Positions 34,779-51,494 of a DNA stretch of 64,000 nucleotides are shown in pieces; positions within the stretch are counted from its first letter, which is position 1, and each line of letters starts with the position of its first letter. The translations under genes were made by a program, and so were the position numbers. Origin of the DNA: Escherichia phage arall. Where the stretch lies: sequence record MN850584.1, one strand, 5' to 3'. The notes beneath the pieces were generated by a model, which was given only the letters and a program-made list of their open reading frames with translations, did not search any database and was not told the DNA's origin.

Positions 34779-35288
34779 TTAGCGATAGAATTGATGTTCT
34801 TTGTAGCGGTACACTAGAACCATATCTTTTTCCCAGTGTGCTCTTATTGTAGATTTTTTAAAGTATAATGCTCCTTTTGTAATATCTAATGCAATTCGTA
34901 ATTCTGGAAAATGGTTATCGAGATAAAGTAGACGTTCTGCTATAGCTTTAGCGTCTTTCCACTTATCGTGTTCCATAACGTTGAATGTCTTTGTGTAAGA
35001 GAATTGTCCTTTCTGAAACAAAACTTCTTTTATAGTATCAGGGAAATATGAATCTTTAGCCCTATTCAATACTACATTACCAACAGCAGACATACCGCGC
35101 TTTCCTTGATTACGACTTTCTGCATAGATTGCACAAGCTAATAGATTTTCTTTACTATCACGCTTTGTACACTTGTGAACTACTTTAGCAGTTTTTACGT
35201 TTGCAGCTTCGGCTTGCGCCACAACAGGTGTAAATGTAAAAGCAGTTAAGGATAGTAACGCAATTGCGACAAAGGTTTTTATTGACAA
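34779..35288 (-). CDS. secreted cell-wall hydrolase, SleB/Hydrolase_2-like (endolysin candidate)
   Basis: 169 aa; N-terminal Sec signal peptide (MSIKTFVAIALLSLTAFTFTPVVAQA/EA); CAIYAESRNQGKRGMSAVGNVVLNRAKD matches the SleB-type catalytic region; AGGAGG RBS. Confidence 0.55.
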   Translation of the reverse strand: MSIKTFVAIALLSLTAFTFTPVVAQAEAANVKTAKVVHKCTKRDSKENLLACAIYAESRNQGKRGMSAVGNVVLNRAKDSYFPDTIKEVLFQKGQFSYTKTFNVMEHDKWKDAKAIAERLLYLDNHFPELRIALDITKGALYFKKSTIRAHWEKDMVLVYRYKEHQFYR

Positions 35289-35380
35289 ACTTGCCTCCTA
35301 TTTTGTTAAACGAACTTTTATTGTAACACAGAAGAGGCTATTTTGCAAGTGGAGGGGGACTATCCCCCTCTTACACTCTG

Positions 35381-35983
35381 TTAGATATTGTAAACCTTTG
35401 TATGAGTTACTACACCATCTTCTACAAAATCAATACGTTCTTGATCCGTGACTAGTGCAGACAACACTTTAAATTTAATTTTTACACGTTCAAAAGCTGG
35501 TTGACCATCTTTAAGATAATTATGTTCGGTTGTCACTGTCTTGTTTACAAAATCAACTTTTGCTTTACCGTTTTCGCGTAGGTGGAATGTTTTTCCTGCT
35601 TTATACACAATTTCAACATTACCTTCGAGAGTAATTCCTTCAAAAAGTTCACCCTCTTCTTCATTTTCTTCGCTTTTGAACAGACGACGAAACTCTTCCA
35701 TATCAAGATAAACAACATCTTCAGAATAACTATCAGTAAGGTATGTCTTACCATCCATTAACCCGAAATATTGCCAGATCGCAGAATAAACATCACTAGT
35801 TGATCCAAGGGTATCTCTGAGTTTAGTTCCACGGATTACTTCATAAACTTCAAAATTGAAACCAGACTGCAAAGCATCAAACAGCACATCACTAACTTCT
35901 AAAGCATAATCTTCATTGTTGTCAATATCTACAAGAAAATTGCCGCTACGAATAAGTTTTTGACCTTCTAAAGTAATACTCAT
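35381..35983 (-). CDS. hypothetical protein
   Basis: 200 aa; GAGGAGA RBS; first gene of the Ter-type island. Confidence 0.45.
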   Translation of the reverse strand: MSITLEGQKLIRSGNFLVDIDNNEDYALEVSDVLFDALQSGFNFEVYEVIRGTKLRDTLGSTSDVYSAIWQYFGLMDGKTYLTDSYSEDVVYLDMEEFRRLFKSEENEEEGELFEGITLEGNVEIVYKAGKTFHLRENGKAKVDFVNKTVTTEHNYLKDGQPAFERVKIKFKVLSALVTDQERIDFVEDGVVTHTKVYNI

Positions 35984-36035
35984 TGTTTTCTCCTCTTCTA
36001 TTTAAAATATGCGCCCCGAAGGGCACTATGATTTA

Positions 36036-36632
36036 TTACTCGAACCAATCGTCGCCAGCGCCAAACGCTTTAACTACATCATAAATGTCAAGTCCAGCTT
36101 TACCTACACCATATGCTTTCAGTTTCCATTCACTATCTTCCCGCACCAGGGAGGCAACGTGGCAAATGGTATTACCTGCAAGTTCTGGAGCCAAGAAGTC
36201 AAAATCCAGCAGTTCAACGTTACGTTCATCATCGAAGATTTTAAGGAAACCTTCGGTAGCGTGACCAAGGCGTTTCTTACCCGTTTCGTCATCAATAGTA
36301 ATTACGAATGCAATTTCCTGTGCTTCAGCAGAGATATTATCCAGTGTAACATCAATCTGCTCCATTTGTCCTACACCGTCACGAACATCTTCACCTGCAA
36401 AAGTAGAACGTTCAGGGTCAAATTTCTGTGCGTAGCATACCAGGTGGCGAGGAGACAACAGTTCCGGCAGACCAGATGCATTGTGTCGGCAAATCAGAGC
36501 ACTAACATCCAGATCCAGTTTTTCGTTAGATTTCCAAGAGAATTCCAGACGAATGCGTTTCAGTGCTGGTGCAATCTTTTTCAGAGAAACTTTTTCGCTA
36601 GAACCTTTTTTCAGGGAAATTTTCTGAGTCAT
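36036..36632 (-). CDS. terD: TerD-family stress protein
   Basis: 198 aa; ISLKKGSSEKVSLKK, LDLDVSALIC, AGEDVRDGVGQMEQIDVTL, IAFVITIDDE, SEWKLKAYGVG align block by block with YceD/TerD proteins as I recall them. Confidence 0.65.
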   Translation of the reverse strand: MTQKISLKKGSSEKVSLKKIAPALKRIRLEFSWKSNEKLDLDVSALICRHNASGLPELLSPRHLVCYAQKFDPERSTFAGEDVRDGVGQMEQIDVTLDNISAEAQEIAFVITIDDETGKKRLGHATEGFLKIFDDERNVELLDFDFLAPELAGNTICHVASLVREDSEWKLKAYGVGKAGLDIYDVVKAFGAGDDWFE

Positions 36633-36704
36633 AATTTATTATCTCCTTTGTTGTTAATTTACGTTATCTATTTTACTAATCTTTTCTACAAAGTCAAGCG
36701 TTTT

Positions 36705-37499
36705 TTACGCTTTTGCTCCGAATTTTTTAACCCACTCGCCAAACTCTTCGGATAGCAGTTTATCGTAAAGTTCTTCGTCAGACAAGGACAAATCTGCAAT
36801 ACCGATAAAGTCAACGTTATCGTATTCTTTTGCCAAGTCTTTCAGGAATTTAAAGTTTGCATTACCTACACCAACCATAAACCAGTAAACAGGAGTGTTG
36901 CGGTGTTTGTTCAGCAAACTACGTACTGCTGAAGTATCCATGTTCTCCCCGTCAGTTTGGAAGAAAATCATTGCAGGAGTACGATCAACTTGTGCATCAG
37001 TATCTACAACCTGTTCTACAACAGTACGTGTAACTTCTACAAGTTCTTTTTTACCAGTTAGTTTAGCAAGGAAACCCTTAGCCGGAACTTCTTCATACTC
37101 AACGACTTCGCGTGTAATATTTTTCATAGGTACACTACCGAAGTATGTATCATAGATCTCTTGCATTACTGGAGCATAAGCTGTACCACCATTGATGCAA
37201 ACGTTAGACATACAAGAGCCGACATAATCATCATATACATCAGCCGTAGCAGGAGGCAGTTCAAAAGAAGAACTATTGAAAGCCCACATGTCAATCTGTG
37301 CATTATCATCAAACTTCATACCAAACGGCAGCAGCTTACCTACAAAATCACTAACAGTGCCATCACGATACAGCTCACACATACTACCCGAAATATCTAA
37401 GGCGCTACCGACACGAAGAACAACATCGTTAATCTTTTTCTTACGCAGAGATACGGTAAGAGTTTCTTGACGTTTTTTAAGACTGATTTTATTGGACAT
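36705..37499 (-). CDS. vWA-domain protein, TerF/TerY-like
   Basis: 264 aa; TerD-like N-terminal stretch (ISLKKRQETLTVSL) then vWA MIDAS motif DISGSM. Confidence 0.5.
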   Translation of the reverse strand: MSNKISLKKRQETLTVSLRKKKINDVVLRVGSALDISGSMCELYRDGTVSDFVGKLLPFGMKFDDNAQIDMWAFNSSSFELPPATADVYDDYVGSCMSNVCINGGTAYAPVMQEIYDTYFGSVPMKNITREVVEYEEVPAKGFLAKLTGKKELVEVTRTVVEQVVDTDAQVDRTPAMIFFQTDGENMDTSAVRSLLNKHRNTPVYWFMVGVGNANFKFLKDLAKEYDNVDFIGIADLSLSDEELYDKLLSEEFGEWVKKFGAKA

Positions 37500-37500
37500 A

Positions 37501-37770
37501 TTATTTCTCCTTTCTGAGTGTAATGTTAGTAACTTCTAAATCCACTTCTACCATTTCTGTATCATACGAAATACAGCTAAGTTGACCTCTTTGCGAACCG
37601 TTCAGACACATTGCTTGGTTTGTATTAACTTTAATAAACACTAAGTTTCTGAATGTATCTAAACCAGAATCTTGATAGGCAACATAATATACAAATGTAT
37701 CACCTGCGTCAAGTTCTCCAAAACATTTAGGTTCATCTGATTTGTCGTCTTTGATATTAAATTTAAGCAC
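37501..37770 (-). CDS. hypothetical protein
   Basis: 89 aa ORF; stop abuts the vWA gene start. Confidence 0.4.
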   Translation of the reverse strand: MLKFNIKDDKSDEPKCFGELDAGDTFVYYVAYQDSGLDTFRNLVFIKVNTNQAMCLNGSQRGQLSCISYDTEMVEVDLEVTNITLRKEK

Positions 37771-38326
37771 TGTCTTCTCCTTTACCTGCTCTCAAGCCTA
37801 AATAGAAAGCCTCTCTGGTGATCTTTTGCAACTCGTTTAAAGAGATAGTTACAACTAAATCATCTTCAATTTCTAGCTTTGAGTCTTCTTCTGTCTCAAT
37901 GCAAGTATTATGCACTTTGTGGTAAGGATTGTCAACACGTTTAAATTTATTATTTTCAGTGCTGAAGAAGCAATCTGGATCTTCTTCCCCATCACCCCAA
38001 CCCTGGTTAGGATCTTCTTCAGATCTTTCTGTTGGGATCTCGCCTGTAAAGTGCTCTTCTAATACCAGAGCAATCCCATCTCCAAGATCGGAAGAGAACA
38101 TCAAATTACAAACTTCTTCCCAAGGCATAGACCACTTAAATCTTTTACGATTGCCATGTTTATCTTCTTCGTTAGAGAAAACACTACCATAACTATCATA
38201 ATTCCCATACATCTCTTCGACAACCTTACCACCTTTCAAAAGAAATAGGTAGCAAGGAGAGCCATCGAAAGAGGTAGAAAGAGCAGCATTACCAGACTCT
38301 TTGCACAAGAAACTAAAACACCCCAT
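37763..38326 (-). CDS. hypothetical protein
   Basis: 187 aa; acidic C-terminal half; overlaps neighbour by 8 nt. Confidence 0.4.
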   Translation of the reverse strand: MGCFSFLCKESGNAALSTSFDGSPCYLFLLKGGKVVEEMYGNYDSYGSVFSNEEDKHGNRKRFKWSMPWEEVCNLMFSSDLGDGIALVLEEHFTGEIPTERSEEDPNQGWGDGEEDPDCFFSTENNKFKRVDNPYHKVHNTCIETEEDSKLEIEDDLVVTISLNELQKITREAFYLGLRAGKGEDSA

Positions 38327-38526
38327 TATACACCAGCCTTAAGATCAATTAAAGCCAAAGTTGTTTCAGAGTGTGTTTGCTCGTCTACAGGTGCAGTCAT
38401 ATGATAATACAAAAAATCTTCGGCATCATACCAATCTGATTCTTGACCTTGTTTCCAACCATCAATGAAAGCATCTTCCATAATGGTTTGCAATTCTTCA
38501 CGAGTTAAGTGAATATCTTTACTCAT
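38326..38526 (-). CDS. hypothetical protein
   Basis: 66 aa acidic ORF; ATGA overlap. Confidence 0.35.
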   Translation of the reverse strand: MSKDIHLTREELQTIMEDAFIDGWKQGQESDWYDAEDFLYYHMTAPVDEQTHSETTLALIDLKAGV

Positions 38527-38759
38527 TACACATTCTCCTCTTTTACCAATTCCATCGTTGAATTGTCAAAACCATCTTTAGAAGAATAGGTATAGACAGA
38601 ACGTAGTTCTCGCAGGACAGTGAATACATTAGGATCATCTAACCAAGCATCCTGGAGGAGAACATAACGATCTTCATTGTCATACTGAACAGCAATCATA
38701 GAACCAGACAGTTTGTAAATTTTAATATTCATAATATATTTCTCCTTAAAGTAGACCAC
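38526..38759 (-). CDS. hypothetical protein
   Basis: 77 aa ORF; true start may be the internal MNIKIYKL. Confidence 0.35.
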   Translation of the reverse strand: MVYFKEKYIMNIKIYKLSGSMIAVQYDNEDRYVLLQDAWLDDPNVFTVLRELRSVYTYSSKDGFDNSTMELVKEENV

Positions 38760-39849
38760 GTTTAACAGTTTGAATCATACCATCTTCAAGAGATTGCACT
38801 TCTTGAATGTAATCAATACGAGCAGCACGGGCTTCAGTGTTGATTCGGTTAGTTTCTTCCAACATTTTAACTAAGTTTTCTTGATCACGACGCAATGTTT
38901 CAATATCCAATACTTGACGATTAGCAAGTTGTGTAGCTTCAATCTGGTTTTGTGCAGCCAGATCACTACCCATTGCAATAGCAGCATTAAATTCATTCAG
39001 TACGTTGTTCTGTGTATCGGCTGCTTTCTTCTGGCGTAGACTTTCAATATACATAGAAAAGTTTGCAGAGTAAGCAGGAATAACATTATTCACAATATTA
39101 CGGGCTGATCGCATCAAACTTGCAGATACTTTCTGCATACTTTGTACACGTGGCCCCATCTGAACACATAGTAAGCGTAGGGCTTTCAGGTCTGCAATAC
39201 GAATTTCAAGCAGATCCATAGTATCACGAGTACGTTGACGCTCTTCTACCTCATTTTCAGGTAGTGTATTAAGGCGAATTTCTTCTTTTTCATAAGTAGC
39301 TGTTAGAAGCTCTATATCCCTGTTTAAGCTAAGGGCATATTTTGCAATAGCCTCTTCTAAACGTTGCAGATATCGTAAAGAATCTTCTTCTTTTTTCAAG
39401 TCTGTTTGGAGTGTCTTTACCAAACCTTCAATACGGTTATTGATGGTGTCAAATTCTCCAAACAAATCTTCTTTCATACCTAAAACTTTCTTAACTAGTT
39501 TACCTAAACCTTTAGATTGTTTAATAGAGTTAGGATCAAGTTGCTTTGCTTGCTTAATAAGTGCAGTTAAACGTTCACTCATTTCATCTCCCTGAGATGA
39601 ACGCTGGTGTTTAAGCACTTCAGCATTAAGGTTACGAAGAGTAAGTCCTGCATCAGCACCAACCTGTTCAATCTCTTCACGAGACATTGGAGGCAGCATT
39701 TGTACAGGGCGTGCAACAGCAGGGGCATATACAGGGCTTGCATCCATAGCACTTGGAGCAAACAAAGACTTACTTTTTTCTGTTGTTGCCGTGAATACAC
39801 TCATTTCAGACGGTTTGCTTTTTACGGCACTGATAAAAGGACTGGACAT
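38746..39849 (-). CDS. helical protein, TelA-like (toxic anion resistance family) candidate
   Basis: 367 aa; GGAGGA RBS; predicted all-helical with coiled-coil heptads; size and position between TerD and TerC as in yce-type operons; no motif confirmed. Confidence 0.35.
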   Translation of the reverse strand: MSSPFISAVKSKPSEMSVFTATTEKSKSLFAPSAMDASPVYAPAVARPVQMLPPMSREEIEQVGADAGLTLRNLNAEVLKHQRSSQGDEMSERLTALIKQAKQLDPNSIKQSKGLGKLVKKVLGMKEDLFGEFDTINNRIEGLVKTLQTDLKKEEDSLRYLQRLEEAIAKYALSLNRDIELLTATYEKEEIRLNTLPENEVEERQRTRDTMDLLEIRIADLKALRLLCVQMGPRVQSMQKVSASLMRSARNIVNNVIPAYSANFSMYIESLRQKKAADTQNNVLNEFNAAIAMGSDLAAQNQIEATQLANRQVLDIETLRRDQENLVKMLEETNRINTEARAARIDYIQEVQSLEDGMIQTVKRGLL

Positions 39850-39917
39850 TCAATTTCCTCCATATTCTTTAGTAGATGGTGATACCTCTGTACCACCATC
39901 ATAACACAAATTAAGTA

Positions 39918-40769
39918 TTAAACAAACATATCTAAATAATTTGTAGTAATAAATGCTCCATCTGCTTCCAGATTAACATAACCCGTGGTATTAGCAGTTA
40001 AGAAATCCAGATCGAAGGACTCTTTAACACCCCGTACCTCAACACGAGAGATATCGAATACAGGTAGTGTAACAGCCTCTTCGTGCAATACCGTACCTTT
40101 GTAGGTTGCCTTAATGATAAACTTGATATTACCTGTTCCAGCATCATATAAAACACTTTCAAACCCTTTGAGAGTATATTTATCACCAGAAGTGAAGTGC
40201 AAAGTTGCTTTGTTTACAGTACGTTTCTTACGAGGAGTTCCTTTCACACATTTATGATCACTACGTTTTTTGTATTTAGGAATGAATACAAACGATACAC
40301 TCTCAAGAAAGGTATCAACATCAAGGATTTTAATATCCTCTGTTGCAGCAAATTTTGAAGTCGTTGCATCAAAATGCTTTTCCCTGCGATCATACATAAA
40401 GATATCAAACCGATCTTCTAAATCAAACAAATTATGTATTTTAATTTCAGAATGCTTGCGCATTGCAGCAACCTTGAACTCTTCAAAACGTGGGTGTTCT
40501 ACAAGTTCTTCAAGTTTTACACCAAAGATAGTATATTGCTTCGAAGTCTTTTCTGGTGTTGGCATTACAGAAGCATAGTCCCCGATTGCGCTCTTAAAGC
40601 AAAATTGTTCTTGACCTGTATTTTTACCAACGAATTTACAGTATTCGTCATCGTGCATACTTTCCTTGGTAGTACCAACAAACTCAAAACCATCTTTATT
40701 CTTCTCAAGGATTTCTTGATTAAAGATCCAACCTTCCAGGCGATATACTTTACCAACTTCTAGTTTCAT
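39918..40769 (-). CDS. hypothetical protein
   Basis: 283 aa; GGAGAAACAG upstream. Confidence 0.45.
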   Translation of the reverse strand: MKLEVGKVYRLEGWIFNQEILEKNKDGFEFVGTTKESMHDDEYCKFVGKNTGQEQFCFKSAIGDYASVMPTPEKTSKQYTIFGVKLEELVEHPRFEEFKVAAMRKHSEIKIHNLFDLEDRFDIFMYDRREKHFDATTSKFAATEDIKILDVDTFLESVSFVFIPKYKKRSDHKCVKGTPRKKRTVNKATLHFTSGDKYTLKGFESVLYDAGTGNIKFIIKATYKGTVLHEEAVTLPVFDISRVEVRGVKESFDLDFLTANTTGYVNLEADGAFITTNYLDMFV

Positions 40770-40804
40770 CTGTTTCTCCTTCTTATTTAATCTGTATTAA
40801 ATTA

Positions 40805-41395
40805 TTAACGACGACGTGAGCTACTAAAACTACGTTTCGACGAAGAATAACTTTTCGAAGACTTACTATAAGAGCTAATAGGGCTTGAGTAAGACTTACG
40901 AGCAGAGTAATCACTATTCACTTTTGTTGTTGACGGGCGTGAATACGTTTGTACACTTTGCTGCTTAATTGTGTTTTGTTTAGTGGTTGTATATGTATTT
41001 CCTTGTTTATCATAAAAACTATGCTTTTGTGTTGTATATGCTTTACTGTTAGTTGTAGGAGCAGCGTTGTTATTAATAATTGTTGTGCTGCTACCACCAT
41101 CTCTATAACCGCCACCGCCACTATTACCACTCAACATATGACCAAGAAGCATACCTGTAGCAAACTCACCTACACCAGACGAACCACTGCCGCCTCCTTG
41201 CACAACAACTGTTGAAGGTTGTGCAGGTGCTGCTTGAACAACTTGAGGTGCAGGCTGGTTTACATATTGTTCATCTACCATCTGATTTGGTGTTTGTTGG
41301 TAACGTTGATTTTGTACATTTTCAGAATCATCACAACCTACCAGCAATGCACTACCTAAAACAACTGCAACAATAAAAGATTTAATGTTTTTCAT
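40805..41395 (-). CDS. lipoprotein with low-complexity Ser/Tyr/Lys-rich tail
   Basis: 196 aa from ATG at 41395 (GAGAGGG RBS); signal peptide with lipobox LVGC (MKNIKSFIVAVVLGSALLVGC); C-terminus YSSPISSYSKSSKSYSSSKRSFSSSRRR. Confidence 0.55.
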   Translation of the reverse strand: MKNIKSFIVAVVLGSALLVGCDDSENVQNQRYQQTPNQMVDEQYVNQPAPQVVQAAPAQPSTVVVQGGGSGSSGVGEFATGMLLGHMLSGNSGGGGYRDGGSSTTIINNNAAPTTNSKAYTTQKHSFYDKQGNTYTTTKQNTIKQQSVQTYSRPSTTKVNSDYSARKSYSSPISSYSKSSKSYSSSKRSFSSSRRR

Positions 41396-41588
41396 TTGTA
41401 ACCCTCTCATTTAAAGTCTCAACACAATTTTTAAAATCCCTAGAGAAACAATACATCTGTTCTCCGTTCCTGTTGATAGTAATTGTATGGTTATCAATAT
41501 ATGTTGTCAAGATAAAAATCAAACAAAACAACCCTAGAGCAAAACAAATATTTTCAAACAGAATCCAAAGAACACGTAAAACCACCAT
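41382..41588 (-). CDS. small membrane protein (candidate)
   Basis: 68 aa; GAGGTGA RBS; one hydrophobic helix (FALGLFCLIFILTTY); overlaps lipoprotein start by 14 nt. Confidence 0.3.
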   Translation of the reverse strand: MVVLRVLWILFENICFALGLFCLIFILTTYIDNHTITINRNGEQMYCFSRDFKNCVETLNERVTNEKH

Positions 41589-41599
41589 CAGATCACCTC

Positions 41600-41623
41600 A
41601 ACAAAGCCCCCCGAAGGGGCTTA
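41600..41623 (-). terminator. terminator-like hairpin after terC
   Basis: AAGCCCC-TTCGG-GGGGCTT on - strand; weak T-tract. Confidence 0.4.
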
Positions 41624-41628
41624 ATGAA

Positions 41629-42606
41629 TTAAGCAACAGTCTGGTCTTCTTTTTCAGGGAAGATTAAACTTGCAAGAACACCCAGCCCAAGAGTACCTAA
41701 CACAATATACATACTGATCGTCGGGTCAATGTGTGCTGGCAGGAAACTCATTTTTGCGTGCAGAGTTTCTGCAAACGGATGATACATCAGTTTTACACCA
41801 ACAAATACCAGGACTACGATAACTGCTTTCTCCAGATGAACCAAATACTTCAGTGCAACACTAAGAACAAAGAACAGAGCACGTAAACCTAAGATTGCAC
41901 AGAGCATCGAAGAGAACACCAGCAGAGGTTCTTGTGTCACTGCAATTACTGCTGGAACAGAGTCTACTGCAAAGATTACGTCAACCATTTCCATTACAAA
42001 CACACAAACCAGAGCCGGAGTTGCTACACGAACACCATTTTTTATTGTGAAGAACTTCTCACCATTCATCTGATCAGATACAGGGAACAGCTTACGAACA
42101 ATGCGAGTAGCCCAGTGTTTAGAGTAATCAACTTCTGCATCATCATCCCCAGCGAATACCATTTTAGCCGCACAGAAAAGGATGACAGCACCGAAGAAGA
42201 TATTAACATACCAGCCCAAACTCAACAAGTAAGTACCTACTGCTACAAACACACCTCGGAAGACAATCGCACCTGCAATACCCCAAAGTAGAATTTTGTG
42301 CTGCAAGTGTGTGCTTTTAATACCAAAACTTGCGAAGACTGCCACAAATACTACTAAGTTATCTACAGAAAGAGATTTCTCCAACACATACCCACTCAAG
42401 AACAAGCTCGCAAAATCAGCACCGTGTTGGAAGTATACAAAACCATAGTAGGCTAATGATACCCCAATCCAGAAAATTGACCAGCCAATTGCAGATTTAA
42501 ATGAAATTTCTTTGTTTTCTCTGTGTCCAAAGAAGTCAATACAAATCGACAAGACTAAAATACCCACTAAAACAACCACATCAATAATTGGGAAACCCAG
42601 TTGCAT
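41629..42606 (-). CDS. terC: TerC-family integral membrane protein
   Basis: 325 aa; multiple TM helices; hallmark YVLEKSLSVDNLVVFVAVF (E-x-SLSVDN); AGGAGA RBS. Confidence 0.7.
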   Translation of the reverse strand: MQLGFPIIDVVVLVGILVLSICIDFFGHRENKEISFKSAIGWSIFWIGVSLAYYGFVYFQHGADFASLFLSGYVLEKSLSVDNLVVFVAVFASFGIKSTHLQHKILLWGIAGAIVFRGVFVAVGTYLLSLGWYVNIFFGAVILFCAAKMVFAGDDDAEVDYSKHWATRIVRKLFPVSDQMNGEKFFTIKNGVRVATPALVCVFVMEMVDVIFAVDSVPAVIAVTQEPLLVFSSMLCAILGLRALFFVLSVALKYLVHLEKAVIVVLVFVGVKLMYHPFAETLHAKMSFLPAHIDPTISMYIVLGTLGLGVLASLIFPEKEDQTVA

Positions 42607-42683
42607 TCTTTTCTCCTCTTTAATGCGGAGGACAATCCTCCGCTCTATGTCTTATACTATAAACTGTTTTTAAAGAAAGTCAA

Positions 42684-42932
42684 CTAGTTCAGTTCTGTAA
42701 TTTTAAGTTTATCTTCTTTGTTAATGATAGGGAAAGCTACAGCATCACCTACGTCATCAATAAAGCAAATAGCAAGACCACCTTCCACTTTGCTAATCTG
42801 ACCATTAAAGGCGTGATACGGGGCAGGAACTTGATCTCCATCTTCAAGGAGAATAGCCTCGTAAACCTTGCCGATAGTACAATCACGAGTGTTTCTAAAT
42901 TTTTCAAGCACTTCAACATTTACTTTACGCAT
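42684..42932 (-). CDS. hypothetical protein
   Basis: 82 aa ORF with GAGAGGA RBS. Confidence 0.4.
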   Translation of the reverse strand: MRKVNVEVLEKFRNTRDCTIGKVYEAILLEDGDQVPAPYHAFNGQISKVEGGLAICFIDDVGDAVAFPIINKEDKLKITELN

Positions 42933-42946
42933 ATAAAAATCCTCTC

Positions 42947-43153
42947 TTATTTGTTAGATTGAAAGATACCACGGAGTACCGCAAGAATGAACGTCACACA
43001 GACTACACTCCAAAACGTTACAGGAACATGATGCCAGTCTAAGCCGATAATGTCAATCATATAGTTGTATGCTAAAAGCAGTAGCCAACTAGGGATTAAC
43101 ACAATCAAAAACACAACAATAAAACAACCTAATACTGCTAAAACACCTGCCAT
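42947..43153 (-). CDS. small two-TM membrane protein
   Basis: 68 aa; two hydrophobic helices; GGAGAAAG RBS. Confidence 0.4.
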   Translation of the reverse strand: MAGVLAVLGCFIVVFLIVLIPSWLLLLAYNYMIDIIGLDWHHVPVTFWSVVCVTFILAVLRGIFQSNK

Positions 43154-43162
43154 ACTTTCTCC

Positions 43163-43879
43163 TTATTTCAGTTTGTAAACAATTACATTTAAACCTTTGT
43201 TTACTAGAGTTTCTTCGATCATAAGTTTTACAATATTCCAAGAACCTCCAGCCAAACCACAACCAAGCATTGGTAAACCTACAATTTTACCGCCTGAAGA
43301 TACAACATCGTCTCCCATACTATCTAACGCATTGTAGATAGCTTCATAATTCAGGTCACGCTTACCTTCCTCACGACGACTATAACCATATTGTCCATAT
43401 AAATTATAAATTGTCAAATTGTTTTCTGTATACTTAGTAAACGTACCTAATTTTTTATAATCACCACGTTTAGTGGCACAATCTGCTTTAAACGCACCAG
43501 GCCACTTGCTTTTAATTTTTGGTGCAATACCACTACCCATAGTGCAAAAACAGTTACAGCAGTGTGCTATAGCGTCTATATCGCCTCTCTCGGCTGCTGC
43601 TAAAAGATCACCGTATACCTCAATGATACCTGCTAGATAACTTGTTACAATTTCATCTTCCCAGTACATTTGCTCTACACCACCGATCAGTGCAAAGTTT
43701 TGTGTAAGGCGATCATCAATATAGTTAAGACCTGAAACATACACAGCATATTCATCCTGTGCTGTAATACCTTGTACACGAATTCTTAAGACACCATCTT
43801 TATCTGTTGCTACACGCCCAAAATCTTTTTCTGTAATATTGGTGATAGGATCTCCGAAAGTCATTACTTTATTAGACAT
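43163..43879 (-). CDS. macro-domain protein (TARG1/Poa1p/DarG-like) with N-terminal extension
   Basis: 238 aa from ATG at 43879 (longer ORF would overlap upstream gene by 125 nt); AIAHCCNCFCTMGSGIA and VGLPMLGCGLAGGSWNIV parallel the two signature blocks of TARG1-type macro domains. Confidence 0.5.
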   Translation of the reverse strand: MSNKVMTFGDPITNITEKDFGRVATDKDGVLRIRVQGITAQDEYAVYVSGLNYIDDRLTQNFALIGGVEQMYWEDEIVTSYLAGIIEVYGDLLAAAERGDIDAIAHCCNCFCTMGSGIAPKIKSKWPGAFKADCATKRGDYKKLGTFTKYTENNLTIYNLYGQYGYSRREEGKRDLNYEAIYNALDSMGDDVVSSGGKIVGLPMLGCGLAGGSWNIVKLMIEETLVNKGLNVIVYKLK

Positions 43880-44729
43880 AATAATCCCCTTTAACATTAG
43901 ATTTGTTGATAATGTTGCTTTCAAAAAATTGACGTAGGAAATCAAAGTTCTCTTTATATTTTTCAATGTTATTGTAGCCTTCTGCAAGGCAACCAAAGAA
44001 CAGTTGTTCTACATAATACAAAGGAAGCTGTGAAAGTGCAATTTTAAAATCAACTTCGCTTTGACTCATTAGATACTTAATAGGACGAACCAAACATTTA
44101 GCATCAGTTTCTTGCTTAATCATTTTAATAAAAGCTGCCAGGTTATTGATATAGTTGAAGTTAAGTGCAGCTTCGGTATTGGCTTCTGTACCTTCATACT
44201 TTGCAAAGTACAGGAAAAACGTATCGTTTTCAACACCTTCTTTGTCTAAAATTTCAATAAGTTTTTCTTCGTGCGTTCCTGTAATATTAACATCATCAAT
44301 GAAAATCAGAGTTTTATTACCCCAGAAATCACGATTGATAGAGAAAGTGTCACCATCGATCAAAGCCTTACGATCTTCTTTGCTAAGAAATCCATAATCA
44401 TTGATATAGCTCACTTTACGATGAACGATATCCCACTCCACTGCTTTACCTCCTTTGATAGAGATTAGGTAGTTGAGGTGATCTACAAAATGTTCAGATA
44501 ACACTGTAGCTGCATTTTTCACATAGTTATATGGAGATGGAATAACAACAAAACTTTCATTTACCAGTCGTTCTTCATACTTGGAAAAGAAACTTTCAGC
44601 CAGAATGCGTCCCATTCTTTTTGCTGCTTGGTTACTACCAAACTTTAGTTTGGAATAATCTGCAATGTTAAATTTTGCTTCCTTCAGGTTAGTAAAAGTA
44701 TTAGCAAAATGTTGAATTTGATTACGCAT
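43872..44729 (-). CDS. phosphoribosyltransferase-like protein (type I PRT fold candidate)
   Basis: 285 aa; TLIFIDDVNITGTHEE resembles the PRPP-binding loop (hhhhDDhxxTGxT) of PRTases/PRPP synthetases; 8-nt overlap with HAD gene. Confidence 0.35.
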   Translation of the reverse strand: MRNQIQHFANTFTNLKEAKFNIADYSKLKFGSNQAAKRMGRILAESFFSKYEERLVNESFVVIPSPYNYVKNAATVLSEHFVDHLNYLISIKGGKAVEWDIVHRKVSYINDYGFLSKEDRKALIDGDTFSINRDFWGNKTLIFIDDVNITGTHEEKLIEILDKEGVENDTFFLYFAKYEGTEANTEAALNFNYINNLAAFIKMIKQETDAKCLVRPIKYLMSQSEVDFKIALSQLPLYYVEQLFFGCLAEGYNNIEKYKENFDFLRQFFESNIINKSNVKGDYYV

Positions 44730-45378
44730 TAATAAGTTCCTCTTTTTTAAGTTTAGCCAACAAGTCTTCTGGATTAATAATATGACAGAACTTCATCCCT
44801 ATGTCAACAGCTTTTCCATCATAAATCAAACTATCCCCAACGTGTAAAATCTCCTCTGGTGCGAGATCAAACGTTACCATTTCATCAAAAGAGAGTTTAA
44901 AAAACCTAGGATCTGGTTTACACAAGCAAAACTCATCAGAAAAATGCATAAAGTCAAATGGTAATTTTGTCAAGCCAGAATATACAGCTAAGAAACTACC
45001 AGGTACAAAATTGGTATTGCTTTTAATACTCAAAGAATAGGTTGAACTTAGCTCTTCCAACTTCTTGCAAAGTTCAGGGTTTAATATTGGAGGATGTTTT
45101 ATAAACATTGCTAAACAGTCTCTTTTTAACCCATCTACTTTATCAAGATCAATGTTCAAATGAGCAGAAAGTGTTTCCCAAGCATTTCTAGATGTTCCAC
45201 AAATGCCTTTTTCTGCTCTTAAATCCAGGAGAGTTTTTACTTCTTTATATACGGTAGCTGCTTCTACCTCAGAACAAGAGGCATACTCGGCAATAACCTT
45301 GTTGCGTTCTTCTGCATACAAAGGATTAGCAGTAATAAGAGTATTCCATACATCAAAAGAAATATGCTTAACAGTCAT
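44722..45378 (-). CDS. HAD-superfamily hydrolase (phosphatase candidate)
   Basis: 218 aa from ATG at 45378 (GGAGG RBS); motif I-like SFDVWNTLI and motif IV HVGDSLIYDG. Confidence 0.5.
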   Translation of the reverse strand: MTVKHISFDVWNTLITANPLYAEERNKVIAEYASCSEVEAATVYKEVKTLLDLRAEKGICGTSRNAWETLSAHLNIDLDKVDGLKRDCLAMFIKHPPILNPELCKKLEELSSTYSLSIKSNTNFVPGSFLAVYSGLTKLPFDFMHFSDEFCLCKPDPRFFKLSFDEMVTFDLAPEEILHVGDSLIYDGKAVDIGMKFCHIINPEDLLAKLKKEELINA

Positions 45379-45380
45379 TT

Positions 45381-45536
45381 TTAATCCTCCGTCCAAAAGA
45401 ATATCATCTGCTTAATTTTATTGATCTCTTGATGTAGTAACTTTCCAGCATGTGATTGATCTTTAATATTGACAGCAAGAATTTCAAGCTCCGTTAGTTT
45501 TTCTTGGATAGCTTTATATTCATCATCTGTAAGCAT
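45381..45536 (-). CDS. small coiled-coil protein (below ORF-track size cutoff)
   Basis: 51 aa; AAAGGGGA RBS; stop overlaps HAD start (ATGA-type coupling). Confidence 0.3.
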   Translation of the reverse strand: MLTDDEYKAIQEKLTELEILAVNIKDQSHAGKLLHQEINKIKQMIFFWTED

Positions 45537-45547
45537 TTTCTTCCCCT

Positions 45548-45739
45548 TTAGAATGGTAATCTTTGTATGTCACTTATCCCCACACCAAGAAGTCTAGCAA
45601 TATCCTTATCTAAAAGCAACTCTTTTTGTTCTAAAATGTTAATCAGATCTCCTAATACTTCTTTAATGTCACGATCATTTTTAGCAACGTGACCACCTGC
45701 GGTATCAACTTTATCTTTAAAAACAAAATAATGATCCAT
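45548..45739 (-). CDS. hypothetical protein
   Basis: 63 aa from internal ATG (MDHYFVF) with GGAGGG RBS; the longer start lies inside the terminator hairpin. Confidence 0.35.
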   Translation of the reverse strand: MDHYFVFKDKVDTAGGHVAKNDRDIKEVLGDLINILEQKELLLDKDIARLLGVGISDIQRLPF

Positions 45740-45749
45740 AATACCCTCC

Positions 45750-45780
45750 ATATAAATAAAGGAGGCTTTCGCCTCCTTTT
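45750..45780 (-). terminator. rho-independent terminator after AAA ATPase gene
   Basis: AAAGGAGGC-GAAA-GCCTCCTTT hairpin followed by ATTTATAT on - strand. Confidence 0.55.
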
Positions 45781-45785
45781 ATCAC

Positions 45786-46946
45786 TTAGTAAGAACGACC
45801 ACCAAACACATACTCTGTGTAGTTTTTACGTTCTTTGTTTTTAATAACAACTTCAATGTTGTTACCTTTATCATCGGTGAACATAAAGTGATAGCCGTCA
45901 CCACCCATTGTACGAATGTGTTTTTCATCATACGTTAGCAAGATACGGTCTACACCCCAGTAGTAGTCACCTTCTTCATCTTTATCTTCTACGGTAACAA
46001 TCCCTTCCATTTCAGGAAGATGCTCTTCACCTAGTTTATGGTCTACAGCTACAACATAACGATTACCGCTAAACAAACCTTGTGCTGTCATACCGTCAAT
46101 ATCGGTATCTGACGAAACATCTCCTGTACGATCTACACCGTTAACTTTCAGAAGTTTAACCTCTTTTGCAGCATAGCGGTGTTCAGTAATACTGATACCC
46201 ATCAATGCAAGTGCATCAGAGAATTTGTCATTAGGGTAACGGTTAAGTTCTTCTACTAATGACTGAACAATATCAAAGTTCAAATCCACGGAGAGATTAT
46301 AAAGCGTTTCAAAATCTGGTAAGAAGGCTTTGTTCTCCAGATTTTTAGCCAGATAATCATCCATAGTAGCTTTAGGTAGTTTCTTATAGCTAAAACTGTA
46401 GAAAATACGGCTAGGACGATTACGCAAAAATTCTGATACATAACCATCATTTTTAGTCAATACAAACAGTTTGTCGTAGCCACCAACACCATCCAGCAGG
46501 GTAAGCAAACCATCTTGTGCATCTTTTTCAGCATACAGTTTATCAAATTCATCGATCATAATCATCACAGGTTGTGTGATTTTAGACATAAAATTGATAA
46601 AGCCTTCACCATTAAAAGCACTACCGATAGAAATAGTAGGAATACCCATTTCACGAAGAGCAGAAGACAGCATTTTAGCTTGCAAAGTTTTACCGCTACC
46701 TTTCGTACCTTCAAGGAGAACACCTGTGTTTTTACCTTTGCGGCTAAGGAACGTTTTGATAATACGTTCTGATTTATCATCAGTATCACCGTATGTTACT
46801 GAAGGGACTTCCATATCGTTTTTAGGATACAGGAAGAACTCACCACTTTGAGTAACACCTACACCAAAAGTTCCTGCTGGAATTTCTTCAATATCTGTAC
46901 CAGATTTCTGACGCAGAAAGATTTGATTGCCGAATACTGTAAACAT
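45786..46946 (-). CDS. classic-clade AAA ATPase, copy 1
   Basis: 386 aa; Walker A GTKGSGKT, Walker B MIMIDEFDK, sensor-1 TKN, SRH-like EFLRNRPSRIF; paralog of 62965->64000. Confidence 0.6.
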   Translation of the reverse strand: MFTVFGNQIFLRQKSGTDIEEIPAGTFGVGVTQSGEFFLYPKNDMEVPSVTYGDTDDKSERIIKTFLSRKGKNTGVLLEGTKGSGKTLQAKMLSSALREMGIPTISIGSAFNGEGFINFMSKITQPVMIMIDEFDKLYAEKDAQDGLLTLLDGVGGYDKLFVLTKNDGYVSEFLRNRPSRIFYSFSYKKLPKATMDDYLAKNLENKAFLPDFETLYNLSVDLNFDIVQSLVEELNRYPNDKFSDALALMGISITEHRYAAKEVKLLKVNGVDRTGDVSSDTDIDGMTAQGLFSGNRYVVAVDHKLGEEHLPEMEGIVTVEDKDEEGDYYWGVDRILLTYDEKHIRTMGGDGYHFMFTDDKGNNIEVVIKNKERKNYTEYVFGGRSY

Positions 46947-46966
46947 AGTTTTCTCCTCTATTTAAT

Positions 46967-47437
46967 TTAGTCAGATTCCCAAATGTTGTCTTTCTTAACC
47001 CACATTCGTTGATTATCTGAACCTCTATAACGTTTCGTTGTTGGTTGATTCATATCATACTTACCATCTATCACTATGTCAACCAGTTTTTTAATTTTCT
47101 CTGGAATTTCTTCAAAAAGATATCCTGTATATAAGACAATATCTTTTTTGTTTCCAAAACAATCTCTTACCTTCTCAAGAACATACTCTACAGTGTCAAT
47201 GTTCTCTTTGTCAAGAGGTTCACCACCTAAAACTGTTAATCCTTTAATGAAAGGTCGAGATAAATCTTCCAAGATAAGATCTAATGTTTCAGCAGTGAAC
47301 TCTTGTCCGTAGTTATACGACCAGGCTTTCTGGTTAAAGCAGCCACGGCAACCGTGGCTACAACCGCTCACCCACAAAGAGCATCTTACACCGTCACCGT
47401 TGAGCATGTCAACAGGTTCATATCCGGCGTAATTCAA
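46967..47437 (-). CDS. nrdG: anaerobic ribonucleotide reductase activating protein
   Basis: 156 aa; radical-SAM cluster motif CSHGCRGC (CxxxCxxC); overlaps nrdD stop. Confidence 0.75.
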   Translation of the reverse strand: MNYAGYEPVDMLNGDGVRCSLWVSGCSHGCRGCFNQKAWSYNYGQEFTAETLDLILEDLSRPFIKGLTVLGGEPLDKENIDTVEYVLEKVRDCFGNKKDIVLYTGYLFEEIPEKIKKLVDIVIDGKYDMNQPTTKRYRGSDNQRMWVKKDNIWESD

Positions 47438-48375
47438 AAGTGTTTCTCCCTTTCTAGTACCTCTTGCATTTTACCTTTATTATAAGGGCGAGAGTTAGGG
47501 GCAGAAAGGTATCCTGACACTCTTCTGATCACAGATATGGATTCTTCTTCGTGATTACCGCAACTTGGACACTCGAAGCCTTTAGCTGTTGCCTTAAATT
47601 CACCATGAAAACCACATTTGAAACACTGATCTACAGGTTGGTTCACGCCAAAATAAGGGATTTTGTTGTAGGCATAATCTACAAGAGTTTCCAGTGCTTG
47701 CAAGTTATTTTTAAGGTTCGGTGTTTCTACATAACCTATGTTCCCACCATTACTAATTTGTGCAAAACCTTCCTCATAATCCCACTTTTGGAACGGGGTA
47801 GTGTGCATCCATACAGGTTGATGGAAAGAGTTTGTCAAGTAGTCACGATCAATAGAGCCAGGATAGCGATCATTTAACGCTTTGGCAAATTTATAGCACA
47901 AGGATTCTGCTGGTGTTCCATACAAACTAAAAGCTAAACCAGAACGTTCTTTAAATGTGCAACAGATATCCTTCATATATTGAAGGATGTTTTTACCCAT
48001 TGCTTTTGGATTGGTGTTACCTGGGTATAAAATCTCCATAGCTTCTGCTAAACCTACATAACCGATACTAATAGAGGCATAACCACCTTCGAATAGCTTA
48101 CCAATCTCTTCATTAGCTTCTAGTCGAGCTAAAGCCCCTTCCATAAACAATGTAGGGTTTTGAGATGCTTTGGTATGTCTAATACGGTTAACACGTAGCA
48201 TATGTGCCTTATACGCCATCTCCATATGTTGTTCCAACAGTTCAGTAAATAAGATGCCCTTTTCACGGGACTCTGCTGCAATGATAGGTAAGTTTAAAGA
48301 AACTACGCCTAAGTTGAAACGACCATCATATTTTTCACCTTGCTCTGTTGCATAGTATGACAAGAAACTTCTACA
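47434..48375 (-). CDS. nrdD: anaerobic ribonucleoside-triphosphate reductase, exon 2
   Basis: Begins CRSFLSYYATEQGEKYDGRFNLGVVSLNLP; C-terminal glycyl-radical region RRVSGYL and Zn ribbon CFKC…CPSC; the ORF-track start (GTG at 48405) is intron read-through; junction approximate. Confidence 0.7.
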   Translation of the reverse strand, partial: CRSFLSYYATEQGEKYDGRFNLGVVSLNLPIIAAESREKGILFTELLEQHMEMAYKAHMLRVNRIRHTKASQNPTLFMEGALARLEANEEIGKLFEGGYASISIGYVGLAEAMEILYPGNTNPKAMGKNILQYMKDICCTFKERSGLAFSLYGTPAESLCYKFAKALNDRYPGSIDRDYLTNSFHQPVWMHTTPFQKWDYEEGFAQISNGGNIGYVETPNLKNNLQALETLVDYAYNKIPYFGVNQPVDQCFKCGFHGEFKATAKGFECPSCGNHEEESISVIRRVSGYLSAPNSRPYNKGKMQEVLEREKHF

Positions 48376-49144
48376 CATTATGTTCAAAGTGGCTCGCAAG
48401 GCCACTCCCGCACCATTACGTGCTGCTGCATGTCACCATGCAGATCAGACTATATCTTCATGCTTAAAGCATGTCTACCATTTGGGGTGTCATAGGCTTA
48501 CACCCTACGCTGCTACATTCATCACAGCTAGTCGTTAGGCATTTCGTAACAGAACTCATAATCATAATTATTTGGTGCTCCGCGCTTTAAGATTGCAGAT
48601 ATTCTTTTTCTGTCCAACCCTAAAGCGTCAGCACAACATCTCAGACTTTTAAAGTAAAAAACTTCACCAGTAGCCTTATGAGTAGCTTTTACACTGTGAC
48701 ACCTTGTGTAGAAAGCATAACAGTTATTATCGTAACCCTCTTGCGTGTTGTCTGGACAAGATCCCCACTCAAGATTGTATACACTGTTGTCTTTCCTATT
48801 GTCACCTTTATGCTTCACATAAGGTAAATTGTCTGGATTGGGTAAAAACGCTTCAGCTACAAGTCTGTGCACCCGAAAGCAAACAGTTTTCTTGTTTTTA
48901 CGTATTCTGACAAGTTGGTATCCTGTGTTTATTTCTTCCCACGAGCGAAGGATTCTTTCATCCTTATACCTGGTACAATAAACATTTCCAAGCTCGTCAA
49001 TTTCATACCCTTCAAAATCACGAATTTGTTTTCTCATACCAGTACCCCCTTCTTCTGTGTTGGGAGTTCTGTTACGTTTAGCACGGGATTGTCTCGTTGA
49101 GAGTTCCCCCGTTTAGGCAGATTTTACATGAGCAGTTATAGTTT
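48376..49144 (-). mobile_element. group I intron interrupting nrdD
   Basis: 769 nt between …ATGGGT (exon ends in U) and TGT…; ends in G; contains P/Q-like pair (CUAAACGGGGGAAC / AAUCCCGUGC) 5' of the endonuclease ORF and R/S-like elements (CCUAACGACUAGC / GAAGAUAUAGUC) 3' of it. Confidence 0.65.
48528..49037 (-). CDS. intron-encoded HNH homing endonuclease
   Basis: 169 aa; FEGYEIDELGNVYCTRYKD…YQLVRI…VHRLVAEAF…KHKGDNRKDNSVYNLEW typical of HNH_3-type homing endonucleases; stop codon falls inside the R element. Confidence 0.65.
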   Translation of the reverse strand: MRKQIRDFEGYEIDELGNVYCTRYKDERILRSWEEINTGYQLVRIRKNKKTVCFRVHRLVAEAFLPNPDNLPYVKHKGDNRKDNSVYNLEWGSCPDNTQEGYDNNCYAFYTRCHSVKATHKATGEVFYFKSLRCCADALGLDRKRISAILKRGAPNNYDYEFCYEMPND

Positions 49145-50002
49145 ACCCATGCTTGTGACGCGACCATCTGAAGATCCTGTAACTTCTTTGTTTAAAGGTA
49201 CAGAGATAAAATCAGGATAAATGCGTTCAGCACAACACTCCATTGCCAGTTGCTTCAAATCATAGTTTGGATCGCCAGCTTTCATGTTAACACCATCTTC
49301 CAAGAAGAAGATAACTTTAGGAAACACAGGAGTTACCCTATCTTTTCCTAATCCTTGTTTGTGCACCATTAGGTAGTTTTTAGTGATCATTCTACCAAAA
49401 GCAGAGGTATCCAAACCTAAACTAATTGTTATAAAAGGTGACTGACCATTTACACTCATTAGAGTGTTCACCTGGTAGATTAAAGTTTGCATTGCATCAT
49501 AGACCTGTTTATCTACCATACGCATAGCAATATCATAATCGCCAACATCGGCATATATTTTATTAAAACTTGCTTTAACGTATTGACTAAGCCCAGTATC
49601 AACATGTGCACAAGTTTGTCCACCATATTGGCTAGAAGCTACTGCTTGAATAATTTGAGTTAGGACAGTAGTCGCTACACCGATAGATTTTGGTTTTTCA
49701 ATATGTGCATTACCAATACGGAAACCGTTCTCAAGCATATCTTGGTAATTTACCAGGCAACAATTAGTTAAAGGTGAGAGTAAATAATCTAAATCGTGAA
49801 TGTGACCATACCCACTTTTATGCCATTCTGCCAGATCTTCCGGTAAAATATGGGTCATTGCCATGTGCTTGCTTAGGATACCTGCTAGTAAGTCTCGGTG
49901 AGTATTAACAATCATTGCAGGTTTGTTTGCATTTTCACGAGTAAATTCTTCGGATGTTTGTTCGAGGAATCCGATTACATCCTCATATAGTTTTTGGGTC
50001 AT
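49145..50002 (-). CDS. nrdD: anaerobic ribonucleoside-triphosphate reductase, exon 1
   Basis: N-terminal NrdD portion ending …DGRVTSMG; the last two ORF-track codons (KL*) are intron-derived; GGAGG RBS. Confidence 0.7.
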
Positions 50003-51059: not shown

Positions 51060-51494
51060 TTAGTTTAAAATTTCTTTGGCAATGGTAGAAGCAAGTTTTC
51101 CATCATATTGATTAGGATACTCTGCTTTAAGGTGTTTCATCATATCTGGCATTTTCTTGCCTGTCAAGGCAAATTCTTCAGCAATCGCTCGAAGGTCATC
51201 TTCAGATAGCATTTCTGGTAAATATTTTTCCAGGGTGGTGATATCCCGCATAGCTCGCTCACATTTGCTAATGGAGGCATTAACTTTCTTAAGCGAGTCT
51301 AGTTCCTCTTTAGCGTGTGCAATACCAATCTTAACAATGTTAATCATAATATCATCTTCTGATTTATTCAGATTTGCCTTTTGAGTACGAGCAAGGTCAA
51401 ACTCACCAATAATATTAGTTAACAAAGCAAAAGCACCCTTATCGGTTGTACGTGCTAAGATACGATCTGCTTTCATTTGTGTCACAATAGACAT
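51060..51494 (-). CDS. GatB/YqeY-domain protein
   Basis: 144 aa; C-terminal KYLPEMLSEDDLRAIAEEFA…KKMPDMMKHLKAEYPNQYDGKLASTIAKEIL fits the YqeY pattern. Confidence 0.5.
   Translation of the reverse strand: MSIVTQMKADRILARTTDKGAFALLTNIIGEFDLARTQKANLNKSEDDIMINIVKIGIAHAKEELDSLKKVNASISKCERAMRDITTLEKYLPEMLSEDDLRAIAEEFALTGKKMPDMMKHLKAEYPNQYDGKLASTIAKEILN

Follow-up and report, generated by a model that had tools for sequence, protein, structure and literature searches.

We analyzed a 64,000-nucleotide stretch of Escherichia phage arall (MN850584.1, hereafter the window), which is 99% identical to phi92-like Escherichia phages (Justusliebigvirus, Stephanstirmvirinae) and encodes a haloacid dehalogenase (HAD)-superfamily hydrolase, a phosphoribosyltransferase (PRTase) and a macro-domain protein in succession. 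The HAD and PRTase form a conserved enzyme dyad, which probably constitutes the "biosynthetic" component of an abbreviated Ter system in this lytic phi92-like E. coli phage, with the macro-domain protein most likely standing apart from it. All three open reading frames (ORFs) are present on the minus strand, as set out in a preliminary description of this DNA, which had joined the three proteins into a single unit with a possible role in small-molecule synthesis or salvage. Many GenBank records already carry annotations of the genes, under the labels putative (orotate) phosphoribosyltransferase, hydrolase or HAD-like, and phosphatase or macrodomain. The locus adds to the computationally defined Ter kind and is nothing categorically new.

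The 285-residue PRTase (43872..44729, minus strand) is the orthologue of phi92 gp186 and matches Pfam PRTase_3 (PF15610) over residues 16-265 with an E-value of 1.1e-41 (143.5 bits, cut-off 28.7). The preliminary description had noticed a motif resembling a loop that binds phosphoribosyl pyrophosphate (PRPP). This motif proved to be real, since the sequence LIFIDDVNITGT (residues 141-152) falls inside the PRTase_3 match, its key residues are conserved, and it aligns with the PRPP loop of Staphylococcus aureus HPRT, VLIIEDILETGTT. The loop reads DDVNITGTH within LIFIDDVNITGTH (141-153), and D145, D146, T150 and G151 are invariant among 28 homologues reaching down to 44% identity, while T152 is nearly so, with one Ala. 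A pyrophosphate (PPi)-loop-like segment, SPYN..NAAT at residues 65-75, is also conserved among the homologues, as is a loop at 104-115, RKVSYINDYGFL, of the form R-x3-Y-x2-D-YGFL.

The AlphaFold2 (AF2) model of the PRTase, built on the 28 homologues, has a mean predicted local distance difference test score (pLDDT) of 91.7. It places the motif at the PRPP-loop position of a Rossmann-like PRTase core fold, with a strand at 140-148, the loop itself and a helix at 152-163, and adds a C-terminal helical domain at approximately residues 185-280. Foldseek comparison of this model returned HGXPRT (1.5e-6) and Helicobacter pylori ComF (7p0h, 2.4e-5), as well as PyrR, UPRT and APRT, with a probability of 1.00 over approximately 170-180 N-terminal residues. 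A single-sequence search of the PDB with the PRTase gave nothing significant, and a profile search of PDB sequences gave weak HPRT matches only, at the PRPP loop; the fold assignment therefore rests on the model. Judged from that model, the 285-residue protein genuinely has the type I PRTase fold, and it belongs to the ComF-like family PRTase_3. The preliminary description had left a choice between PRPP-synthetase-like, ComF-like and other type I families; no PRPP-synthetase-like family was matched. The PRTase is present in 156 isolated phage genomes.

The HAD hydrolase (218 residues, 44722..45378, minus strand) is the orthologue of phi92 gp187. It matches Pfam Hydrolase with an E-value of 1.2e-5 and 26.2 bits, just below the gathering cut-off of 26.4, and PHROG 14393, annotated "hydrolase". 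Motif I (SFDVWNTL) supplies the nucleophile D9 and has W11 at the Asp+2 position, and is followed by motif II SIKSNT (S120), motif III CKPDP (K154) and motif IV GDSLIYD (D182 and D187). Motifs I and IV had been named before and are real, with their key residues conserved. D9 is invariant in a 25-sequence alignment, and S120, K154, D182 and D187 are likewise invariant, corresponding to motifs II and III and to a Mg2+-type motif IV (GDxxxD). Among the 43 loci for which the motifs were tabulated, the nucleophile is present in all except L015, a truncated copy in which the N-terminus with motif I is missing. The residue at nucleophile+2 is Trp in 41 of these 43 rows and Tyr in one (L038), L015 being the row without motif I; it is Asp in none. 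Cap residues R25, Y44, K48 and D52 are invariant in the alignment. The AF2 model (pLDDT 95.2) shows a Rossmannoid core and a helical C1 cap (helices 19-110), and its best Foldseek match is 2om6, Pyrococcus PH0253 (template modelling (TM) score of 0.80). This archaeal structural-genomics protein shares the DVWNTL motif, with Trp at nucleophile+2. The HAD domain of a polysaccharide ribofuranosyltransferase (7shg) was among the best matches (1.5e-9), and HDHD3/4 were matched also.

We collected 43 loci carrying relatives of the PRTase from phage contigs, isolated phages and bacterial genomes (23 phage and 20 bacterial, the latter including 14 rhizobial loci). In 42 of the 43, the gene directly preceding the PRTase encodes a HAD of the same family. 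The carriers range over Xanthomonas, Caulobacter and other jumbo phages, rhizobia, Bacteroidota, an actinomycete and a Peribacteria metagenome-assembled genome; in rhizobia and Bacteroidota the dyad is chromosomal or plasmid-borne. Thus, HAD and PRTase can be taken as a functional unit, since their adjacency is conserved across phyla. Of the 23 phage loci, 14 have Ter genes (TerC, TerD, TelA or vWA-TerF) no more than 10 kb from the dyad, and so do five of the six non-rhizobial bacterial loci; in the sixth (Dysgonomonas), the dyad has genes for a PP2C phosphatase and a Ser/Thr kinase as neighbours. A tblastn search found no PRTase_3 homologue on the classical enterobacterial ter plasmids, the plasmid matches being confined to rhizobial plasmids and one Hymenobacter plasmid.

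A side observation concerns the bacterial Ter loci of the Peribacteria genome (L024) and a Pedococcus chromosome (L025), where the HAD gene is followed by a tandem pair of PRTase_3-like genes. These may be the "two PRTases" that the complete Ter module of bacteria contains, of which the phages keep one.

The window itself holds a Ter cluster of approximately 9.4 kb (36036-45378, from TerD to HAD), equivalent to phi92 gp172-gp187, with HAD and PRTase at one end. All members lie on the minus strand. They comprise a TerD-domain protein (198 residues, 36036..36632, Pfam TerD 5.1e-28, phi92 gp172), a vWA-TerF-like protein (264 residues, 36705..37499, Pfam vWA-TerF-like 1.2e-38, phi92 gp173), a TelA-family protein (367 residues, 38746..39849, Pfam TelA 7.9e-34, phi92 gp178) and an integral membrane protein of the TerC/Alx family (325 residues, 41629..42606, phi92 gp182), the last matching both Pfam TerC (1.3e-38) and NCBIfam TIGR03718 TerC/Alx (2.2e-96, 322.9 bits, cut-off 246.4). 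The link to Ter genes, which the preliminary description had mentioned for bacteria, is present in the window itself, 1.3-8 kb downstream on the same strand. Between the macro-domain gene and terC are two small genes, also on the minus strand. One encodes a 68-residue hydrophobic protein (42947..43153, PHROG 16065), kept beside the macro-domain gene and TerC in three related phage loci (L028, L029 and L031), and the other an 82-residue protein in the same gene string (42684..42932, PHROG 17459), weakly conserved in L028.

Two further observations concern terC. A perfect 8-bp GC-rich hairpin, GCGGAGGACAATCCTCCGC, at 42625-42643 falls in the 77 nt that separate the Alx-like terC from the gene before it, and phage Paula has a terminator annotated there on the opposite strand. 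Many terC/alx genes of cells are preceded by the yybP-ykoY riboswitch; in 35000-48000, neither this family nor any other in Rfam gave a match at E<=1. In the phAPEC8-like contig IMGVR_UViG_3300014004_000001 (L031), TerC is 94% identical to the window TerC, while PRTase, HAD and macro-domain protein are 65%, 50% and 50% identical, a mosaicism suggesting that phage lineages have recently exchanged terC.

The ter cluster is embedded in the replication and nucleotide-metabolism arm of the genome, between nrdDG and the DNA polymerase gene. The gene order, read in the direction of transcription, is a hairpin, a 67-residue ORF, a 51-residue ORF, HAD, PRTase, macro, the 68- and 82-residue ORFs and TerC. 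A Shine-Dalgarno sequence, GGAGG, stands 7 nt upstream of the HAD ATG. HAD and PRTase genes overlap by 8 nt (ATGCGTAA), as do PRTase and macro-domain genes (ATGTCTAA), and at both junctions a Shine-Dalgarno-like purine run lies within the upstream gene. One GenBank annotation starts the macro-domain gene at an alternative ATG at 43897, which lengthens its overlap to 26 nt. The two 8-nt overlaps had been reported before and were found as described, on the minus strand. Overlapping junctions are ordinary here (9 of 25 neighbouring junctions), so that the overlaps alone lend little weight to a functional unit. The earlier proposal that they imply one translational unit is downgraded as evidence of shared function, and a unit of three genes that includes the macro-domain gene is not supported.

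Upstream of the HAD gene, a 51-residue ORF (45381-45536, minus strand) ends with its stop 2 nt ahead of the HAD start codon, and a 67-residue ORF (45548-45751, minus strand, PHROG 17780) has an orthologue in phage Paula annotated "putative gene/transcriptional regulator". These two are probably the first genes of the HAD/PRTase transcription unit. A terminator-like hairpin with a T-rich tail, AAAGGAGGCGAAAGCCTCCTTT (45758..45779, minus strand), just past the upstream AAA-ATPase gene, is likely the 5' boundary of the unit, and a terminator is annotated at the same position in phage Paula. The promoter and terminator scan of the region gave counts not above shuffled expectation (40 vs 36 and 7 vs 6.2), so hairpins in general did not exceed chance, and we retained just two, this one and that before terC, both of which are also annotated in the related record.

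From the folds and motifs, the gene pairing and the Ter linkage, we infer substrates, product, order of steps and biological role as follows. The PRTase_3 enzyme would bind PRPP through its intact DD..TGT loop and move the 5-phosphoribose onto a base-like small-molecule nucleophile, with release of PPi. The HAD, which would be produced in stoichiometric amounts from its overlapping gene, would then process the ribotide, most probably by removing the 5'-phosphate. Asp9 would be phosphorylated as the enzyme-bound intermediate, D182 and D187 would hold Mg2+, and the general acid would come from elsewhere than Asp+2. The riboside or ribotide product could act with the phage Ter membrane proteins during infection, in membrane or ion-stress control or in the exclusion of superinfecting phages. 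There is experimental precedent for the chemistry in ribofuranosyltransferases, in which a phosphoribosyl group from PRPP is first transferred and then loses its 5-phosphate through a HAD activity (PMC11127046). Comparative genomics has moreover described Ter systems in which PRTases and HAD phosphoesterases make a nucleoside or nucleotide derivative (PMC7824862, PMC5512222).

Several observations weigh against this interpretation. In nine of the 23 phage loci, and in every one of the 14 rhizobial loci, no Ter gene was found within 10 kb, which indicates that the dyad can work apart from Ter proteins; one rhizobial locus (L010) has the dyad beside a Clp protease and metabolic genes that are unrelated, and Ter genes are absent there. 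The full bacterial Ter module, according to Anantharaman and colleagues in 2012, reportedly includes an ATP-grasp protein, a TIM-barrel lyase and a second PRTase. All three were absent by Pfam from the ORFs scanned between 34.8 and 47 kb, and for this reason we call the window Ter system abbreviated. The near structural neighbours of the HAD model include HADs that are not phosphatases, namely haloacid dehalogenases, azetidine-2-carboxylate hydrolase and epoxysuccinate hydrolase. The HAD lacks the Asp+2 general acid/base of canonical HAD phosphatases and has Trp there. Adjacency of the macro-domain gene to the dyad persists through the divergence of phi92-like and phAPEC8-like phages, which leaves a functional link between them as an alternative of low probability. 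Finally, we found no report in which a PRTase_3 enzyme or a HAD associated with Ter genes had been characterised biochemically.

In the active site, Trp in place of the general acid marks out the HAD subfamily that is paired with PRTase_3. It also leaves the label of simple phosphatase insecure. The earlier designation "HAD phosphatase" is accordingly upheld for the nucleophile Asp and motifs II-IV, and is qualified at the general-acid position. The protein looks like a Mg2+-dependent phosphoryl-transfer enzyme, in which the acid comes from the cap (R25, Y44, K48, D52) or is not needed by the substrate.

This Trp, together with a possibly non-nucleobase acceptor, opens a bolder version of the biosynthetic proposal, in which the dyad makes a novel ribosylated signal or effector by non-canonical chemistry, and the phage uses it with TerC, TelA, TerD and the vWA protein for remodelling of the host membrane or its ion balance or for exclusion of rival phages. 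We regard this version as speculative and on balance unlikely. Were the macro domain to act on the same ribosyl product, instead of on ADP-ribosylated DNA, the three enzymes would make up a small-molecule pathway without a characterised counterpart.

A related explanation, which we consider distinctly unlikely, is that the dyad ribosylates an acceptor other than a base, such as a glycan, a lipid phosphate or an envelope protein or other macromolecule, with the product acting at the membrane alongside TerC. It is suggested by the match of the HAD model to the HAD (PRP) domain of 7shg, but that domain is one among many HAD matches of similar score. The two-step logic with non-base acceptors has been shown experimentally (PMC11127046), and the neighbours TerC, TelA and the 68-residue hydrophobic ORF are of membrane or sub-membrane character. 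However, the window enzyme is a soluble type I PRTase nearest to the purine and pyrimidine PRTases and ComF, and not to gPRT or UbiA-like PPPRS domains, and glycan-synthesis genes are not adjacent. The comparison with bipartite ribofuranosyltransferases (7shg; PMC11127046) can be summarized similarly. Both pair PRPP transfer with HAD dephosphorylation in two steps and have similar HAD domains, whereas the transferase of the bipartite enzymes is of another fold or family, with a sugar or lipid phosphate as acceptor, and the window dyad has its two activities on separate, overlapping genes.

We next consider the macro-domain protein (238 residues, 43163..43879, minus strand, with the alternative start at 43897), the orthologue of phi92 gp185. 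An N-terminal extension of approximately 85 residues precedes an ALC1-like macrodomain of the SCO6735/BT1257/TARG1/DarG type. The protein matches Pfam Macro (2.3e-7, 31.2 bits, cut-off 22), and in the PDB its best match is SCO6735 (5e3b, 1.6e-15), together with BT1257, followed by TARG1 (4e-10) and DarG (1e-3). The NCBIfam DarG match (5e-13) reaches 48.9 bits, far under the cut-off of 250, and the PADLOC DarG match (1e-13) covers the macro part only (model positions 6-144 of 329). H106, N109, Q163, G165 and the GCGLAGG loop are conserved, and all of these except H106 align with Asn27, Gln85, Gly87 and the diphosphate loop of SCO6735. SCO6735 strips thymidine-linked ADP-ribose from DNA and neutralises DarT, and its Asn and Gln are essential (PMC9411070). 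Relative to DarG, the window protein carries an unrelated extension and has no DarT-binding C-terminal domain, and no darT gene adjoins it. These features make it an orphan DarG-like hydrolase at most.

Macro domains bind ADP-ribose derivatives, and the preliminary description had grouped this gene with the dyad in a possible pathway of ADP-ribose or nicotinamide adenine dinucleotide (NAD)-related synthesis or salvage. As a three-step pathway, this could serve, for example, to reconstitute NAD against host defence. In its favour are the 8-nt overlaps at both junctions and an adjacency that is kept in phi92-like, Klebsiella/Citrobacter-type and phAPEC8-like phages as identities drop to 65% (PRTase), 47-50% (HAD) and 50% (macro). 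The macro-domain gene directly follows the dyad only in these phages, in seven of the 43 loci. It is 7-8 kb away in two jumbo phages and not beside the dyad in the other 34, and none of the 20 bacterial loci has it there. Even within the set, the PRTase-macro gap widens to approximately 0.6-1 kb in L028 and L029, where conservation is limited to the macrodomain proper. The frequency of overlaps among the neighbouring junctions speaks against the pathway as well, as does membership of the SCO6735/DarG/TARG1 class, which removes ADP-ribose from DNA or protein. The grouping of all three genes as one unit is not borne out.

Nor did the NAD-related part of the proposal find support. None of the three proteins matched a Nampt/NAPRTase, Nmnat or PRPP-synthetase-like family. 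Nicotinamide and nicotinate PRTases are type II enzymes, whereas the window PRTase is type I. We compared the locus with the phage NAD reconstitution systems NARP1 (Adps/Namat) and NARP2 (NadV/Nmnat) and with jumbo-phage NAD genes, as had been suggested earlier. The likeness is that of a phage PRPP-type transferase near an ADP-ribose-binding domain; family-level similarity is lacking in all three window proteins, and the PRTase belongs to another class. No NARP-type adenylyltransferase or pyrophosphokinase partner was found among HAD, PRTase and macro-domain protein, the scan covering the three proteins and their neighbours. An NAD-salvage or NARP-like pathway was rejected on these two grounds, family and PRTase class, and we attach only slight probability to the three-gene pathway as a whole.

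The macro-domain protein is most likely, from its sequence relationships, a lineage-specific neighbour of the dyad and an independent DarG/SCO6735-type hydrolase, and a candidate anti-DarT2 factor. It would act alone, stripping DarT-type ADP-ribose from phage DNA. We separate it from the dyad because its match is of the SCO6735 type with the essential residues retained (N109, Q163 and the GCGLAGG loop), and because phage anti-DarT factors are known. These include phage-encoded DarG-like antitoxin mimics, and in Bas60-62, relatives of the present phage, a NADAR protein reverses DarTG1 (PMC11825919). The macro-domain protein is thus a candidate phage anti-DarT2 factor beside the NADAR anti-DarT1 factor already shown in Bas60-62.

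Another explanation sets product formation aside and supposes that the PRTase mainly depletes PRPP or perturbs nucleotide pools, in host takeover or to abort superinfection, with the HAD as helper or antidote. The PRTase-like effector of the defence system Retron-Eco11 causes such a depletion (PMC12746101), the Ter system is tied to phage inhibition, and superinfection exclusion has been proposed for phage Ter genes (PMC7824862). Depletion of PRPP would, however, starve the phage as well, given its heavy investment in nucleotide supply (NrdD/NrdG adjoining), and the strict pairing with a HAD whose substrate-facing cap is conserved (R25, Y44, K48, D52) better fits the processing of a product. 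The PRTase_3 family is not in PADLOC, nor did any PADLOC model of a defence system match PRTase, HAD or a Ter protein. We therefore see little chance that PRPP depletion is the main function. Finally, synthesis of a modified precursor for hypermodification of phage DNA, which had been raised before and which the location between nrdDG and DNA polymerase and the general ability of PRTases to make nucleotides might suggest, is very improbable and was rejected, as phi92-like phages are exceptionally susceptible to restriction-modification systems (PMC8594841), removal of a 5'-phosphate by the HAD leads away from dNTP synthesis, and the same dyad occurs in rhizobial and Bacteroidota chromosomes or plasmids, near Ter or kinase genes.

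Comparison with known systems places the dyad, in our preferred reading as the biosynthetic part of an abbreviated Ter system, close to the Ter biosynthetic module, which Anantharaman, Iyer and Aravind are said to have predicted computationally in 2012. The PRTase_3 family, the adjacency of HAD and PRTase and the linkage to TerC, TerD, TelA and vWA-TerF are the same, while the window version is abbreviated and has a macro-domain gene inserted right behind the dyad. Phage-borne Ter systems have been noted in Acinetobacter phage ME3 "and certain other related smaller tailed phages" (Iyer et al. 2021, PMC7824862), and ter genes are mentioned, as being without a known function, in further papers on phage genomes. 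The window differs in that its carrier is a 146-kb lytic coliphage and not a jumbo phage. ComFC (7p0h) shares the Pfam name "ComF-like" with the window PRTase and has the highest query TM-score (0.41) among the top Foldseek matches. The window PRTase differs from it in having no ComFA helicase partner and in carrying the extra C-terminal helical domain. ComFC works in DNA uptake, where its catalytic role is unclear (PMC5512222).

With two enzymes and four Ter proteins, the locus is the smallest version of the Ter system in the present analysis. Its hosts are lytic coliphages held in public collections (BASEL Bas60-62, phi92) that grow on E. coli K-12, which makes the proposal directly testable.

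Further genes lie around the cluster. A 386-residue AAA+ ATPase (45786-46946, PHROG 2376) separates nrdG from the Ter-dyad unit, and counterparts of 73-74% identity lie upstream of the dyad in L028 and L029. In phage Paula a paralogue, annotated alike as "ATPase or Zn metalloprotease" (phi92 gp221), is located on the other strand and approximately 15 kb off. The nrdD gene (47434-50002, minus strand) is split. One ORF (49136-50002) corresponds to positions 1-263 of Pfam NRDD and another (47434-48405) to positions 263-562 and the glycyl-radical domain, with a homing-endonuclease ORF of the HNH_3/I-HmuI-NUMOD type (48528-49037) between the halves. EmilieFrey and similar relatives have a single uninterrupted nrdD, and the split looks like an intron or other mobile insertion with its homing endonuclease.

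Just upstream of nrdD is a 144-residue YqeY-like protein (51060-51494, Pfam YqeY 5e-7), neighboured by a "seryl-tRNA-synthetase-like" protein of 190 residues (compare L044, 28691-29710). A YqeY-like gene is also found near the dyad in Xanthomonas phage XaC1. Among the database records with PRTase relatives, MG065645.1 and MG065650.1 ("Campylobacter phage A145" and "B15", host Campylobacter jejuni) carry PRTases 100% and 65% identical to the phi92-like and phAPEC8-like ones and share genome sizes with phi92-like and phAPEC8-like E. coli phages; the C. jejuni host label of these two records looks doubtful.

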